A model generated the notes under the pieces. That model was not told the origin of the DNA. It made no database searches and saw only the letters and a list, made by a program, of their open reading frames with translations. A stretch of 64,000 nucleotides of DNA, taken from positions 1-64,000 of IMG/VR virus record IMGVR_UViG_3300031993_000053; one strand, given 5' to 3'. Made by a program: the position numbers and the translations under genes. This DNA is from a virus. Taxonomy: Duplodnaviria > Caudoviricetes. Below, in pieces: positions 14,811-31,022 of this stretch (position 1 is the stretch's first letter; each line of letters begins with the position of its first letter).

Positions 14811-14885
14811 AGCGGAGTAGAGGAAAGGTACCTCGTGAGACTCATAACCTCAAGGTTGGTGGTTCGAGTCCACCCTCCGCCACCA
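14811..14885 (+). tRNA. tRNA-Met(CAU), initiator-like, encoded CCA
   Basis: cloverleaf: AGCGGAG/CTCCGCC, D-stem GAGG/CCTC, anticodon loop CT CAT AA, T-arm GGTGG TTCGAGT CCACC, ACCA end. Confidence 0.95.
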
Positions 14886-16075: not shown

Positions 16076-16326
16076 AAAAATACATAGTAAGAGTTCAGTA
16101 TACAGAAAGGCATGATTTAGTTGAACTAATAAAAGCTAAAGATGATTATGATTTAGAAAAAATTTTATATAAAAATTATAAAAATTATTTTGATTTAATT
16201 GACGGATTTGAATACGACAAAATTAAAAATTATATGTTTAGAAAAAAGAACCAACCGTGGCTATTATGTGGGTCATGGATTGGTGCTGATTGTTTAAAGG
16301 AGTTATATGAAAATAGAAATAACTAA
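16072..16326 (+). CDS. hypothetical protein
   Basis: ORF track; ggag RBS. Confidence 0.65.
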   Translation: MKKYIVRVQYTERHDLVELIKAKDDYDLEKILYKNYKNYFDLIDGFEYDKIKNYMFRKKNQPWLLCGSWIGADCLKELYENRNN

Positions 16327-17008
16327 AGACCCTTATTATGAAGGAGATTATATTTTTGATAACGATTTATTAGAATTAAAAGAAAATTCAATAACTTGTT
16401 TTGTTGGTTGTAATGGTTCAGGCAAAACTACATTACTTCATAGAATTAGGGATTACTTAAAAAAGGATTGTAAAACAAATGAAATCAAGCATGATTTTTA
16501 TGGGCATGCTTTTGATAAAGCAGTAAAAATTCTTTTTGATGAAGATGATTCTGAACCGGATTTATATTTTTTAGATTTTGATAAAGATAGTAATGTAACT
16601 TATACTGAGTCTGACTATTTTATGAATGCAGCTGGTATTGCATATTCATCAACTGGTGAAGGAATAGTTGATCGTCTTGGTAAAAATATGCAACTATTAG
16701 GATCAACTATTAAAGATTTACATGATACTAAATTAATAATATTTTTTGATGATTGCGATGCTGGAACATCTATTGATATGATTAATGAAATTAAAAATGT
16801 ACTTAAACATATTATTAATACTTGCAAGAAACAAAATATAACTTATTATATTTTATTAACTTCAAATTCATATGAAATGGCAAGAGATTTAAACTGTGTT
16901 AGTGTTCATGATTTTAGTGAGCAACATTTTAAAGATTATGAAGATTATAAGCAATTTGTTTTAAAAAGTAGAGAAAGAAAAAATAAGAGGTTTAAAGAAA
17001 ATGATTAA
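16307..17008 (+). CDS. ABC/AAA-type P-loop ATPase (standalone)
   Basis: GCNGSGKTT Walker A, degenerate signature SSTGE, Walker B IIFFDD, LLTSNS. Confidence 0.8.
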   Translation: MKIEITKDPYYEGDYIFDNDLLELKENSITCFVGCNGSGKTTLLHRIRDYLKKDCKTNEIKHDFYGHAFDKAVKILFDEDDSEPDLYFLDFDKDSNVTYTESDYFMNAAGIAYSSTGEGIVDRLGKNMQLLGSTIKDLHDTKLIIFFDDCDAGTSIDMINEIKNVLKHIINTCKKQNITYYILLTSNSYEMARDLNCVSVHDFSEQHFKDYEDYKQFVLKSRERKNKRFKEND

Positions 17009-26593: not shown

Positions 26594-26920
26594 ATGAATA
26601 ATAAAGATTTTGAAAAATTAGTTGATGAACAATTTGAAATGTGTAAATCTGTTTTATGTAATAAATCTAAAGAATATGATTTTGGCGAAGATAGATTACA
26701 TAGTTTTAAAGTTGCTAGCCAGCTTTTAAAAAGCACGCCAGAAGAAGCTTTAATGGGATATTTAACTAAACATATTATGAGCTTATATGATATGGTGCCA
26801 GAAATTGATAAGTTTAGTTATGATAAATTTAATGAAAAAATAGTCGATATTTTAAATTATTGTTTATTATTAAAAGGTCTTCTTTATGAAAGGAAAAAGA
26901 TTGATGAGTCAAGCAGATAA
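26594..26920 (+). CDS. DUF1599-like nucleotide-modification-associated alpha-helical protein
   Basis: K.KEYD..EDRLHSFK...GYLTKH...EKIVDILNYCLL pattern, adjacent to the TS-like gene. Confidence 0.6.
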   Translation: MNNKDFEKLVDEQFEMCKSVLCNKSKEYDFGEDRLHSFKVASQLLKSTPEEALMGYLTKHIMSLYDMVPEIDKFSYDKFNEKIVDILNYCLLLKGLLYERKKIDESSR

Positions 26921-27743
26921 ATATTTTATTGAAGAAACTTTTGATCTTTTAACAAAAGGATTTAACGATAAAGATTTTAATGTTAGGCCACATTGGTCTG
27001 ATGGAACTCCTGCTCATACAATTAAAACTTTTTGTAGAATTAATAGATATGATTTATCAAAAGAATTTCCGATCCTTACATTAAGAAAAGCTCCATTTAA
27101 TTATGCAGTAAAAGAAATATTATGGATTTTTCAAAAAAAATCAAATAATATAAATGATCTTGATAGTCATAATTGGGATTCATGGGCAGATGAAAATGGA
27201 TCAATTGGAAAAACATATGGTTATGTAGCAGGCGAAAAATATGAATATCCAGAAGGATTAATGGACCAAGTTGATAATGTTCTTTGGTGCTTAAAAAATA
27301 GACCAATGGATAGGCGAATGATAATTCAATTATTTAGACCAGAATATATAAAAGAATCTGGTTTGCCGCCATGCTTGTGTTCATATTTTTTTGATGTTGC
27401 TGGAGATAAATTAAATATGACTGTTATTATGCGTAGCTGTGATATGCTAAGTGCAGCAGGAGCTGGTGAATCTGATGAAATTGGAATGGCAATTTTACAG
27501 CATATGTTTGCGCAAGTATCTAATTTAAAAGTTGGCGAATTAGTAGTTATTAAAAATAATTTTCATGTTTATGATAGGCATTTAGATATTGTTAAAAAAA
27601 TATGTAATAATAAAGCCTATGTAGCACCAACATTTTGGATAAATCCAGAAATTAAAAATTTTTATGATTTTAAGCCTGAAGATTTTAAACTTATCGATTA
27701 TAATTATACAAAATTAGAAGAAAAAATTGAGGTAGCAATATGA
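26904..27743 (+). CDS. thymidylate-synthase-family protein with atypical specificity residues (possible dCMP methylase/hydroxymethylase)
   Basis: RPHWSDGTPAHT, FPILTLR, DRR, LPPC (catalytic Cys), MRSCD, HVYDRH; conserved Asn replaced by Asp (codon 27474-27476). Confidence 0.9.
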   Translation: MSQADKYFIEETFDLLTKGFNDKDFNVRPHWSDGTPAHTIKTFCRINRYDLSKEFPILTLRKAPFNYAVKEILWIFQKKSNNINDLDSHNWDSWADENGSIGKTYGYVAGEKYEYPEGLMDQVDNVLWCLKNRPMDRRMIIQLFRPEYIKESGLPPCLCSYFFDVAGDKLNMTVIMRSCDMLSAAGAGESDEIGMAILQHMFAQVSNLKVGELVVIKNNFHVYDRHLDIVKKICNNKAYVAPTFWINPEIKNFYDFKPEDFKLIDYNYTKLEEKIEVAI

Positions 27744-28156
27744 AAATTAAATTATTAGGTGATACTAAATGTCCTGAACGTAAAAGAAAAAATGATTGTG
27801 GTTGGGACTTTTATCTAAATGATTTTGTTTGTTTTCATAAGGGTGAAACAACAACTGTTGATACTGGCGTTTGTGTTGAGATTCCTGAAGGTTGGGCTGG
27901 ATTATTTGCATTAAGAAGCTCAATTTGTAAAACTGGTTTAACTCTTCAAAATCCATTAGTGGATAACAATTATAGAGGTGAACTTCATCTTTTAATAACG
28001 AATAATACAGATAAAGATTTTTGTTTTTATAAGGGTGATAGAATTGCATCATTATATTGTTTTCCATACTTAACTGAAGATTTAGAAATTGTTGAAGAAT
28101 TAAGTGAAACAGATCGTGGAGATAAATGGAACGGAAGTTCCAATCAGATAGCTTAG
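27740..28156 (+). CDS. trimeric dUTPase-family protein, divergent
   Basis: GWDFY, LRSS, VDNNYRGE, GDRIAS, SETDRG..NGS motifs. Confidence 0.85.
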   Translation: MKIKLLGDTKCPERKRKNDCGWDFYLNDFVCFHKGETTTVDTGVCVEIPEGWAGLFALRSSICKTGLTLQNPLVDNNYRGELHLLITNNTDKDFCFYKGDRIASLYCFPYLTEDLEIVEELSETDRGDKWNGSSNQIA

Positions 28157-28370: not shown

Positions 28371-29216
28371 ATGGAAAAAAATGGTTGCTACGTTTATAAA
28401 CATACTTGTATAATTACTGGAAAATCATATATTGGTTGGTGTTCAAGAAATCCAAAATATCGTTGGGGTAAAAATGGTTCAAATTATTTAGTAAAAAGTG
28501 GGGATAGATTATTTGACCATAAAAAATTTGCTCCTGCAATTTTAAAATATGGATGGAATAATTTTACACATGATATACTATTTTATAATCTTACTGAAAA
28601 AGAAGCATTAGAAAAAGAAAAAGAAATGATAATAAAATATGATTCTTTTAAAAATGGTTATAATAGCACTCTTGGTGGTGATGGTAGTACAGGTAGAAAT
28701 CATACAGAAGAATCTAAAAATAAAGTATCTGCAACAAAACTTAAATCGAGTAAAATTATTTATTGTTATAATAAATTTGGTGAATTAGTTTGCGCTATGA
28801 AAGGTTATAAACAAATTGCAAAATATTTAAATTTACCAAGCGGAGGAATTGCTGATTGTTGTATAAAAGTTAAAGACCAACATAATTCACATAGAACAGC
28901 ATATGGATATGTATTTGCAAATATAAAATTAACTAAAAATGAAATCAAAAAACGATATGAAAGTTATAAAAAGAAATTTGATTGTATTTATATGTATGAT
29001 ATTATTAGTGAAAAATTAATAAATAAATTTTATTCCTATGAAGAAGCGATTAAAAATTCTAATATATGTAGAAGTAGTATATCAGGGTGTTGTAATGGTA
29101 GAACTCGTTTTGTAAAAAATTATATTTTTTCATTTAAAGAATTATCTAAAAATGAATTATTATTAAGAAAAAAATATTTTAATATAAAACATAAAAGGGA
29201 GTTGAATAATTATTGA
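28371..29216 (+). mobile_element. free-standing GIY-YIG homing endonuclease gene with NUMOD-type DNA-binding repeats
   Basis: CYVYKHT...KSYIGW...RW...AILKYGWNNF...E...GYN..GG; two C-terminal I..CC....(TAY/V)..Y.F repeats. Confidence 0.9.
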
Positions 29217-31022
29217 ATTTAATTATCTATGATTTCGAAGTGTTTAAACGAGCGTGTTTGCTAGGAACAATTATAGTAAAAGAAACGGGAGAAGAAAAAT
29301 TATTTCAAACATGGGATTTAAATACGATCAAACAATTTTATTTAGATTATAAAGATGATTCTATTTTTGTTGGATGGAATAGTAAATATTATGATGATTT
29401 AATTTTAGAAGCAATTATTAAAAATAAAGATCCATTTGAAATATCTAAAAAAATTATCGAAAATCATGAATCATTGTGGTGTAATTTAAAATTTTATACA
29501 TATGATGTTATGAATACTGGATTTGCTAGCCAGATATCATTAAAATTAACTGAACTTATATCAGGCGATTCTGTTGAAACAACAGAAGTTGATTTTAATC
29601 TTGATAGGGATTTAACGGAAGAAGAAAAAAAATTAACTGAAAAATATAACCAAGCTGATTTAAAAAAGACCTTTTATAATTTTAAAAAAATATATGATCG
29701 TTTTGAATTAAGACTTGGAATTATTAATGATTGGAATCTTAATTTAATGAAATGTTTAAACATGACTGGTGCTCAAATAGCAGCAGAAGTGCTTCAAGCA
29801 AAAAAAGATCCATCATTAGAATTTAAACCAGTCAAACCAATTTTATATGATAATTTACAAGTTGAAAATAAACAGGCTTTAAATTATTATTTAGAAGAAA
29901 AATTTAGAATTGGTAACTATTTTGAAACAATAAAAATTGGAAATGCTGAGTTAACTCTTGGCGCAGGAGGCTTACACCAAGCCATTAAGAAGTGTTATTA
30001 TGACCGCTTAATGTACTTGGATGTGCGGCTTCGGCCGCAAATGAGTTAGCGGATATTATAATTTAATAGAAATTAATTTTGATTTGTTTTCAAGAACTAT
30101 CTCAGAAGAAGGCAAACGTCGTTATAAAATGATGTATGATCAACAAATAGAACTTAAAAAAATTAATCCAGATTCACCTAAGCGTAAACAATTTAAAACA
30201 ATTTTGTTATCTGTTTTTGGTGCACAATCTTTTGAGGGATCTGCATTTTATGACCCATATATTGGTAAATTAATTCCAATAACAGGCGAATTATTTATGA
30301 TTGACTTTCTTGAAAAAATTCACCATTTATGTACAATAGTTCAAACAAACTCTGATGGTGCAATGATTAAACCTAATTCTGATGAAGCTGAAAAAGAAAT
30401 ATTAAATATTTTAAAAAGTTGGCTAGATCGAACAAAGTTTGTAATTAAACCAAAATATATTTATGACCTTGTACAAAGAGATGTCAATAACTATGTTTAT
30501 AGAGATGAAAAAGGAAATCTTGAAGTTAAGGGTGAAGCATTAAAAAATTATAATTTTGATGATAAAGAATATTCAGCAGGAACAATATTTAATTGTAAAG
30601 AGCCTTCAATAATTGCTAAAGGTGTTGTTGATTATTTAATGTATGATATATCACCTGAAGAAACTGTTGATAAATATAAAGAAGATTTAAGATTATTTCA
30701 ATATGCTTGTAAAAAAGGTGGATATAATTATTTAACATATGATACTGTTTATTATCCATCGCGAGAAACTAGTTCATATGAAATACAAAGCCCGAGTCGT
30801 GTTTTTGCTTATAATTCTAATACTGAAGCTGGTATGGTTTATAAGCACGGTATAAATAAAAAATCTGGTAAAATATCTCAAGCTAAAGTATCTAATTTAC
30901 CAGATAATGTATTTATTTATAATGATAGTATTATTGGAAAGTATGAAGAATTAAAAGATAAAATCGATTGGCAATATTATGTTGATCGTATATATGAAAA
31001 AATAGAAAATTTTATATCATAA
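29213..31022 (+). CDS. family B DNA polymerase, interrupted by a 22-nt insert (30023-30047) in motif A
   Basis: Exo motifs YDFE, GWNSKYYD; rejoined motif A YLDV|SGYYN; motif B KRKQFKTILLSVFG; motif C QTNSDG; DVNNY. Confidence 0.88.
30023..30047 (+). other. putative ribosomal bypass element: GTG take-off, TGCGGC-TTCG-GCCGCA hairpin, GTT landing
   Basis: removing exactly 22 nt restores D-V-S-G-Y-Y-N; downstream frame opens at 30045 right after a TGA. Confidence 0.7.

Follow-up and report, generated by a model that had tools for sequence, protein, structure and literature searches.

An uncultured tailed gut phage (Caudoviricetes; IMG/VR record IMGVR_UViG_3300031993_000053) carries a homologue of thymidylate synthase (TS; ThyA) in which the asparagine that reads the uracil of deoxyuridine monophosphate (dUMP) is replaced by aspartate. 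The gene was analysed in a stretch of 64 kb, here called the window, which is the first part of the 73,501-bp record. We predict, with modest confidence, that the protein is a folate-dependent deoxycytidylate C5-methyltransferase, which would convert deoxycytidine monophosphate (dCMP) to 5-methyl-dCMP. A further prediction, that the virion DNA is substituted with 5-methylcytosine (5mC), is in our view quite possible, if somewhat doubtful. We infer substrate, product and DNA modification from the fold and residues of the protein, from an aspartate that is found throughout its clade, and from the gene cassettes of its relatives. The gene and its diagnostic sites are as follows, with residues numbered as in the 279-residue form unless E. 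coli numbering is indicated.

26904..27743, + strand: ThyA-fold gene of 279 amino acids, candidate dCMP C5-methyltransferase (5-methyl-dCMP synthase), from PF00303, the structure 1b02 and the structural model
27363..27374, + strand: L-P-P-C, with the catalytic Cys157 (E. coli C146) and Leu154 at the L143 position, three residues before the cysteine (Cys minus 3)
27429..27443, + strand: M-R-S-C-D, with Met176 at the Q165 position and with R166, S167 and D169 (Asp180 here) retained
27447..27473, + strand: loop LSAAGAGES, which includes a 3-residue insertion relative to the ThyA of E. coli, B. subtilis and Clostridia
27474..27476, + strand: GAT codon of Asp191 at the position of E. coli Asn177 and L. 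casei Asn229, from sequence and alignments

In the proposed reaction, Cys157 would attack C6 of the base, and a methylene group would be taken from methylenetetrahydrofolate; a hydride from tetrahydrofolate (THF) would then complete the methyl group, yielding dihydrofolate (DHF). With Asp191 in place of Asn, cytosine would be bound and protonated instead of uracil, and the product would be 5-methyl-dCMP and not thymidine monophosphate (dTMP). Host kinases, or some unrecognised kinase of the phage, would phosphorylate this product, which would then enter phage DNA as 5mC, as in Xanthomonas phage Xp12.

Fold and residues of the ThyA homologue

The open reading frame (ORF) extends from 26886 or 26904 to 27743. 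We prefer the ATG at 26904, which follows a Shine-Dalgarno box (AAGGA) at a distance of about 9 nt and matches the site where the relatives (279-290 amino acids) begin. The product matches PF00303 in Pfam with an E value of 3.4e-62 and is the sole match to that family in the 73.5-kb genome. Among solved structures, B. subtilis ThyA (1b02; E 1.3e-59) comes closest, aligned over residues 1-269. The AlphaFold model has a mean predicted local distance difference test score (pLDDT) of 91.5 and superimposes on 1b02 with a template modelling (TM) score of 0.94 and a root mean square deviation of 1.6 Å.

An earlier note on this DNA, made from the letters of the window, had placed an aspartate at the position that discriminates dUMP from dCMP, and had proposed a multiple alignment and a structure prediction as checks. 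Both have now been carried out, and the aspartate falls in the N177 column. The placement rests on an ungapped sequence alignment, in which counting back from the A-Q-V helix leads without gaps to E. coli N177 and to the Asn of the B. subtilis and phi3T enzymes, and on the start of the helix at residue 190 of the model. The other substitutions listed in the note (QRS to MRS, YGFQ/YGYQ to YGYV, QY to GM, and ADAH to NNFH) were all present in the alignments, which also agree with it that the catalytic cysteine (LPPC) and the arginine pair are kept and that T4 gp42 has an MRSND motif. The note made no mention of the insertion. The loop LSAAGAGES takes the place of LGLPF or LGNPF directly before Asp191 and is where confidence in the model is lowest (pLDDT 69 for block 181-190), and the aromatic residue at E. 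coli position 176 is replaced by Ser.

Most of what characterises a ThyA is present, namely the PF00303 fold, the catalytic Cys146, R166, Y94, E58, D169 and the C-terminal tail (...VAI), and R126/R127, S167, W80, W83, H207 and Y209 are retained as well (E. coli numbering). The trait by which ThyA reads uracil, an Asn177 oriented by Gln165, is absent, and Asp191 and Met176 are found instead. Profile scores are divided. The protein falls below all NF0024xx ThyA equivalog cut-offs of NCBIfam (219.9 vs 327 bits for NF002495), and above that of the thymidylate synthase model TIGR03284 (136.1 vs 108.35 bits).

Residues at and around the active site are known to separate the reactions of this fold. 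As cited in PMC8670742, TS mutants N177D and N229D methylate dCMP, and according to the same paper Asp at position 177 tracks phage contigs with modified cytosine. The dCMP hydroxymethylase of T4 has Asp or Glu at Cys minus 3 (PMC6400193; PMC13326640), which in hydroxymethylases activates the substrate water, and its D145N mutation abolishes formation of 5-hydroxymethyl-dCMP (PMC6400193). Further parts of its signature are a Ser-x-Tyr motif, the lack of the TS C-terminal tail, and Val for the TS Trp83 (PMC6400193). In 5-hydroxy-dCMP synthases of the RB69 gp48 type, Asn replaces Asp169 (PMC13326640).

In the alignment, the window protein bears neither of the latter two signatures. It has Leu154 at Cys minus 3, where Leu is invariant within its clade, K-T-Y for Ser-x-Tyr, Trp83 and a full ...EVAI tail, and it keeps Asp180 (D169) in RSCD. 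With the Xp12 type it shares the combination of Asp177, D169 and a residue at Cys minus 3 that is not acidic (in the order 177, Cys minus 3, 169: Asp/Leu/Asp in the window vs Asp/Asn/Asp in Xp12). Position 165 of the window protein is Met. All four characterised dCMP-using enzymes in the alignment carry either Met (T4 gp42, RB69 gp48) or Leu (Xp12, Pseudomonas phage PaMx74) there; among the aligned dUMP enzymes the residue is Gln in E. coli and RB69 td, Ala in phi3T and Asn in SP8. These residue signatures point to reductive methylation of the TS kind acting on dCMP, with 5-methyl-dCMP as the product.

The earlier note had proposed a dCMP methylase or a hydroxymethylase. Its dCMP reading is supported by Met165 and by the clade-wide Asp described below; the hydroxymethylase half is disfavoured, and methylation is the better call. 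A 5-hydroxymethyl-dCMP synthase like T4 gp42, possibly with further decoration of the DNA, would account for Asp177 together with Met165, as in MRSND, and the lost aromatic at 176, together with the extra loop, could give water access to the site. We nevertheless consider it very unlikely, given Leu instead of Asp or Glu at the position where D145N abolishes the T4 reaction (PMC6400193), the lack of Ser-x-Tyr, the retained tail, W83 and D169, and an identity to gp42 of 25%; the gene neighbourhood, treated below, also speaks against it.

The aspartate clade and its descent

Asp at the specificity column, along with the insertion, was found in 117 of the 120 closest relatives in a collection of 5.8 billion metagenomic proteins. 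Among the 80 closest bacterial genome loci, by contrast, 79 have Asn (47-56% identity; Oscillospiraceae, Ruminococcus, Lagierella, Anaerovorax and others), and the insertion is absent from all but one of these. The single bacterial locus with Asp is a 25-kb contig of a Bacteroidales metagenome-assembled genome and groups with phage sequences. With Asp in nearly all relatives and Asn in nearly all of the nearest bacterial loci, Asp191 is not a chance substitution but a trait of the clade.

In a maximum-likelihood tree, the sequences with Asp and insertion form approximately one branch (SH-aLRT 94), with one Asn sequence (P0092) nested inside it. The branch is sister to a pair of Asn sequences that already carry the insertion, and it lies inside the B. 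subtilis-type ThyA group (98). Since other Asn-type relatives (P0096, L014, P0132 and others) also have the insertion, it preceded the Asn-to-Asp change. Many representatives of TS clusters formed at 50% identity (P0123, P0128, P0131, P0135 and others) are 330-550 amino acids long, with two matching stretches around a large insert; such inserts may be inteins or read-through intron ORFs.

The descent from a Bacillota-type ThyA that the earlier note had proposed is supported by this nesting and by identities of 50-56% to Asn-type Clostridia ThyA. The protein is only 24% identical to the Xp12 enzyme (over 127 residues) and 25% to T4 gp42, and because of this difference an independent Asn-to-Asp switch is the simplest history. 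The tree likewise puts the clade apart from Xp12 and PaMx74. Forcing them together costs 33.7 log-likelihood units and is not rejected by the approximately unbiased (AU) test (p 0.121), and Xp12 sits on a long branch. The switch within Bacillota-type ThyA was probably independent of the Xp12 enzyme, with the AU test being no proof of it.

Megablast with 16 kb of sequence as the query gave no match among 50,697 phage records. The three best phage records from tblastn that were examined (H1, H3 and H4, all uncultured human faecal contigs) hold pairs of Asn-type TS and dihydrofolate reductase (DHFR) and fall outside the Asp clade.

Partner genes and gene neighbourhood

The phage genome is complete. 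CheckV gives a completeness of 100%, and the first 30 bases are found again at position 73,381, which corresponds to a terminal repeat of about 121 bp. The G+C content is about 27-28% (A+T 73%). The ThyA homologue sits in a replication module on the + strand, preceded in order by genes for a DUF5906 primase-helicase, a PD-(D/E)XK exonuclease, a Sak4-like annealing protein, a protein like single-stranded DNA-binding protein, a primase-like protein and a 108-residue protein. It is followed by a dUTPase-fold gene, a GIY-YIG homing endonuclease, a DNA polymerase in two ORFs and the large terminase. The two immediate neighbours overlap the TS gene and form a three-gene set with it.

26594..26920, + strand: four-helix protein of 108 amino acids (PHROG match, phrog_6802), overlapping the start of the TS gene by 17 nt
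27740..28156, + strand: trimeric dUTPase-fold gene of a divergent subfamily (PF00692; motif V RGDKWNGSS), candidate dUTP/dCTP pyrophosphatase, overlapping the TS stop by 4 nt

The 108-residue protein accompanies the TS clade as a conserved upstream partner. Homologues were seen directly upstream of Asp-type TS genes, distant members of the clade included, in L096 (39% identity, E 4e-23), L102 and many IMG/VR loci. The protein is modelled as four helices (pLDDT 89) and has conserved acidic residues. Searches of Pfam, NCBIfam and the PDB by profile, and a six-frame search with DUF1599, gave nothing significant for it, and hhalign found no match to the Xp12 PRA-PH protein. The fold matches obtained (2p06 with Z 7.9 and a Foldseek E value of 0.38; the MazG-related 2yxh with E 1.4) are within the noise range of helical bundles, and 11% of the members of the nearest Atlas cluster are DUF1599 proteins.

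The dUTPase-fold protein matches PF00692 with an E value of 2.9e-21, yet falls under the NCBIfam dut cut-offs; its best solved relatives are staphylococcal phage dUTPases. It belongs to a populous subfamily (window 27740-28156; P0319-P0364; L101-L108) with consistent departures from the canonical motifs. Motif III reads P-L-[IV]-D-x-N-Y-R-G-E-[LI]-H, with an invariant His after it, motif IV ends in Ser where the canonical R-I-A-Q has Gln, and motif V is R-G-x-x-W-[NAS]-G-S-S-G-K vs the canonical R-G-x-G-G-F-G-S-T-G. Longer dUTPases show a second form, GW[QA]GSTG, which was seen, like the first, next to Asp-type TS homologues. On each contig where a TS is visible near a member of the subfamily, an Asp-type TS is present, the TS genes coming from two lineages. 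The link is suggestive only, because canonical dUTPases also adjoin Asp-type TS genes. T4, RB69, Xp12 and PaMx74 have no PF00692 gene for comparison. A role of the dUTPase-fold gene as a deaminase of dCTP or 5-methyl-dCTP, to which a DCD match (PF22769, 30.9 bits) might point, was dropped on inspection of the motif, as the position of the deaminase Glu, judged against the E. coli Dcd motif, is Leu.

The two partners may manage the dCTP/dUTP pool, these roles being guesses. In a bolder version of the proposal, the three overlapping genes would be a minimal self-sufficient cassette for cytosine replacement. The dUTPase with the tryptophan motif (W-type) would be a pyrophosphatase of dCTP (and dUTP) that empties the dCTP pool and feeds dCMP to the methylase, itself the product of an independent Asp switch in a Bacillota-type ThyA, and 5mC DNA would be made without a kinase, deaminase or DHFR of the phage. 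This we regard as rather unlikely. A dCTP pyrophosphatase role has so far been tied to enzymes unrelated to the dUTPase fold (T4 gp56 and the MazG/PRA-PH types). What is more novel than the Asp-type TS itself is this conserved three-gene set with its divergent dUTPase subfamily.

Neighbourhoods were inspected on the contigs of several relatives and in scans of IMG/VR, for which one profile of the TS clade and one of the dUTPase subfamily served as queries. A 70-kb contig whose TS is 83% identical keeps the gene order of the window, with a 106-residue protein before the TS, the dUTPase-fold gene after it, and a split polymerase. Relatives of 52-76% identity, on phage contigs of 48 to 260 kb, have the TS homologue followed by a dCMP-family deaminase and DHFR, often with FolD, formate-THF ligase, a T4-type deoxynucleoside monophosphate (dNMP) kinase and a dUTPase in the same row. 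DHFR adjoins members of the clade in nearly all IMG/VR loci. This contrasts with two contigs that bear another, shorter Asp-type TS, with Arg at 143, where a deaminase but no DHFR is in view. A need for DHFR arises only if DHF is formed from THF, as it is in methylation but not in hydroxymethylation (PMC6400193), and the tight linkage to DHFR therefore supports a methylase and speaks against a hydroxymethylase. In a published in vivo assay, 5-methyldeoxycytidine was made by five of seven metagenomic Asp-type TS homologues that have a deaminase in cis (bioRxiv 10.1101/2024.12.05.627091).

One contig, IMGVR_UViG_3300001598_001490 (L125 10001-12161; the same contig as L103), has an Asn member of the clade (GGFNTIEY) directly upstream of a T4-gp42-like Asp-type TS homologue (MRSND...SDLAW), and also holds DHFR, formate-THF ligase, a small helical protein and a W-type dUTPase. 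This arrangement suggests that the Asn and Asp forms do different jobs, with dUMP and dCMP split between the two homologues.

Six-frame searches of the whole 73.5-kb genome found no T4-type dNMP kinase, no PF00383 deaminase and no DHFR, and neither a second TS nor ThyX nor a DNA C5-methyltransferase. The pathway would therefore lean on host enzymes for reduction and phosphorylation, which lowers our confidence in full substitution of the DNA. Absence of a PF21448 kinase is not decisive, because Xp12 and PaMx74 also lack one. No glycosyl- or carbamoyl-transferase was seen in Pfam and PHROG scans, which covered part of the ORFs of the genome, no genome-wide search having been aimed at these families; this and the lack of a dNMP kinase count further against a hydroxymethylase with subsequent decoration.

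Palindrome and dinucleotide statistics of the whole genome are ambiguous. CCGG occurs 4 times vs 19 expected, GATC, CATG and CTAG are at 0.66-0.73 of expectation (GATC 0.67), and the CpG observed/expected ratio is 0.58.

The deaminases of the relatives raise the alternative that dCMP is methylated and that deamination then turns most of the 5-methyl-dCMP, or of its triphosphate, into thymidine nucleotides, as a detour to dTTP that would leave ordinary cytosine in the DNA. A dCMP-family deaminase nearly always adjoins the TS homologue of the relatives, and such deaminases prefer 5-methyl-dCTP and have been proposed to make dTTP (bioRxiv 10.1101/2024.12.05.627091). The A+T content of 73% would fit such a supply, and the avoidance of CCGG and GATC hints at cytosines that are not fully shielded. 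Against this, the phage has no PF00383 deaminase of its own, and the same pathway coexists with full 5mC replacement in Xp12. The dUTPase-fold neighbour, too, lacks the Glu of dCTP deaminases on inspection of its motifs. On balance we judge the detour improbable.

Other features of the window, mostly downstream of the three-gene set, are listed below.

14811-14885: tRNA-Met (CAT) gene
16307-17008: P-loop NTPase of 233 amino acids with weak, mixed AAA/ABC matches
28371-29216: free-standing GIY-YIG homing endonuclease, between the dUTPase-fold gene and the polymerase
29213-30049: DNA polymerase (PHROG 1252), first ORF, profile positions 53-343
30084-31022: DNA polymerase (PHROG 1252), second ORF, profile positions 369-651

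The P-loop NTPase was the sole candidate noticed for an unrecognised phage kinase. GIY-YIG/NUMOD genes also come after the TS homologue in L096 and L099, and in the 70-kb relative the two polymerase ORFs encode 271 and 317 amino acids.

Alternatives, known systems and significance

Several observations weigh against dCMP methylation or against full replacement of cytosine. The TIGR03284 cut-off is passed, and in P0092 a clade member has Asn again, so that the state of the column can flip. The assayed Xp12 enzyme and its homologue of PaMx74 have Asn and not Leu at position 143; a rule by which Leu143 means methyl transfer is only a correlation, and Leu is compatible with methylation without being proof of it. 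A weaker point is that the folate-contact aromatic at 176 is lost (Ser or Ala) in the sub-clade, next to the loop that is modelled with low confidence. The phage is also without the deaminase, DHFR and dNMP kinase of its relatives, and the avoidance of CCGG and GATC, a weak argument, is unexpected if all cytosines have long been shielded.

Some of these observations bear on the alternative that the protein is a working thymidylate synthase, or a dual methylase of dUMP and dCMP, in which the insertion reshapes the pocket and the Asp is tolerated, with the dUTPase supplying dUMP for an A+T-rich phage. The full TS catalytic set with its C-terminal tail, the TIGR03284 score, the interchange of Asp and Asn in the clade, and the fact that it is the sole TS of the genome all fit this view. 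A dUTPase-fold gene directly downstream is the classical pairing for dUMP supply, and the DHFR, deaminase and dNMP kinase next to the relatives are also the ordinary T4-type set for dTMP. On the other hand, an Asp that is merely tolerated accords poorly with its presence in 117 of 120 relatives vs Asn in 79 of 80 free-living Bacillota loci. The scores under all ThyA equivalog cut-offs, the change of the Gln165 that orients Asn177 to Met, as in T4 gp42 and RB69 gp48 (Leu in Xp12), and the co-occurrence of an Asn clade member with a separate Asp-type enzyme point the same way, as do the N-to-D mutants that methylate dCMP (cited in PMC8670742). We consider a plain or dual TS unlikely.

The preferred reading, a dCMP methylase, has both engineered and natural counterparts. 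In L. casei N229D and E. coli N177D (Liu & Santi 1992; Hardy & Nalivaika 1992, as cited in PMC8670742), a single Asn-to-Asp change turns TS into a dCMP methylase, and the window gene looks like a natural version of these mutants on a Bacillota ThyA scaffold. Unlike the mutants, it adds Met165, Ser176, Gly-Met at 180/181, Asn-Asn-Phe before His207 and the 3-residue insertion, the last of which is found in some Asn-type relatives too; these additions suggest further adaptation beyond the single change. Closest in sequence and fold are B. subtilis ThyA (1b02) and the Clostridia ThyA, which have both the N-terminal DGTPAHT block and the C-terminal tail in common with the window protein; these housekeeping dTMP synthases differ by their Asn177 and by Gln (or Ala) at 165, and they have an aromatic 176 and lack the insertion.

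Among the natural dCMP enzymes, the dCMP C5-methyltransferases of Xp12 and PaMx74 share the TS fold, Asp177, a hydrophobic residue at 165, D169, Y94, H207 and Y209. The TS-deaminase-DHFR order of Xp12 is that of the relatives of the window gene, and the predicted product, 5-methyl-dCMP, is the same. Xp12 differs from the window in Asn143, Pro147 and the lack of the insertion, and its neighbours are a gene with a PRA-PH pyrophosphatase domain upstream and deaminase and DHFR downstream, whereas the window has the 108-residue protein, the dUTPase-fold gene, and no deaminase or DHFR. The Xp12 gene directly upstream of the dCMP methylase, annotated 'hydrolase (HAD superfamily)' (L100 8208-8981; MT664984 46207-46980), has its PRA-PH (MazG-like) domain at residues 32-108. 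T4 gp42 and RB69 gp48 also have Asp177 and Met165 and are phage-encoded enzymes of pre-replicative cytosine modification; gp42 differs in its Asp at Cys minus 3, its Ser-x-Tyr and the lack of a C-terminal tail, and gp48 in Glu143 and Asn169.

Phage TS homologues with Asp177 are a published and partly assayed class (PMC8670742; bioRxiv 10.1101/2024.12.05.627091), within which the window gene is probably an independent lineage, and to the concept as such our finding is an incremental gain. If 5-methyl-dCMP is indeed the product, the clade would repeat in nature, on the scaffold of a Bacillota ThyA, what the N229D experiment did, with close Asn and Asp relatives available for comparison. The finding would also bear on automated annotation, in which the gene is now named thymidylate synthase. 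Widespread uncultured phages of gut and rumen metagenomes, with genomes of 70 kb to 260 kb and hosts that are probably Bacillota, would then replace cytosine with 5-methylcytosine before replication, with consequences for the evasion of restriction, possibly also of CRISPR, and for the behaviour of their DNA in sequencing and cloning.

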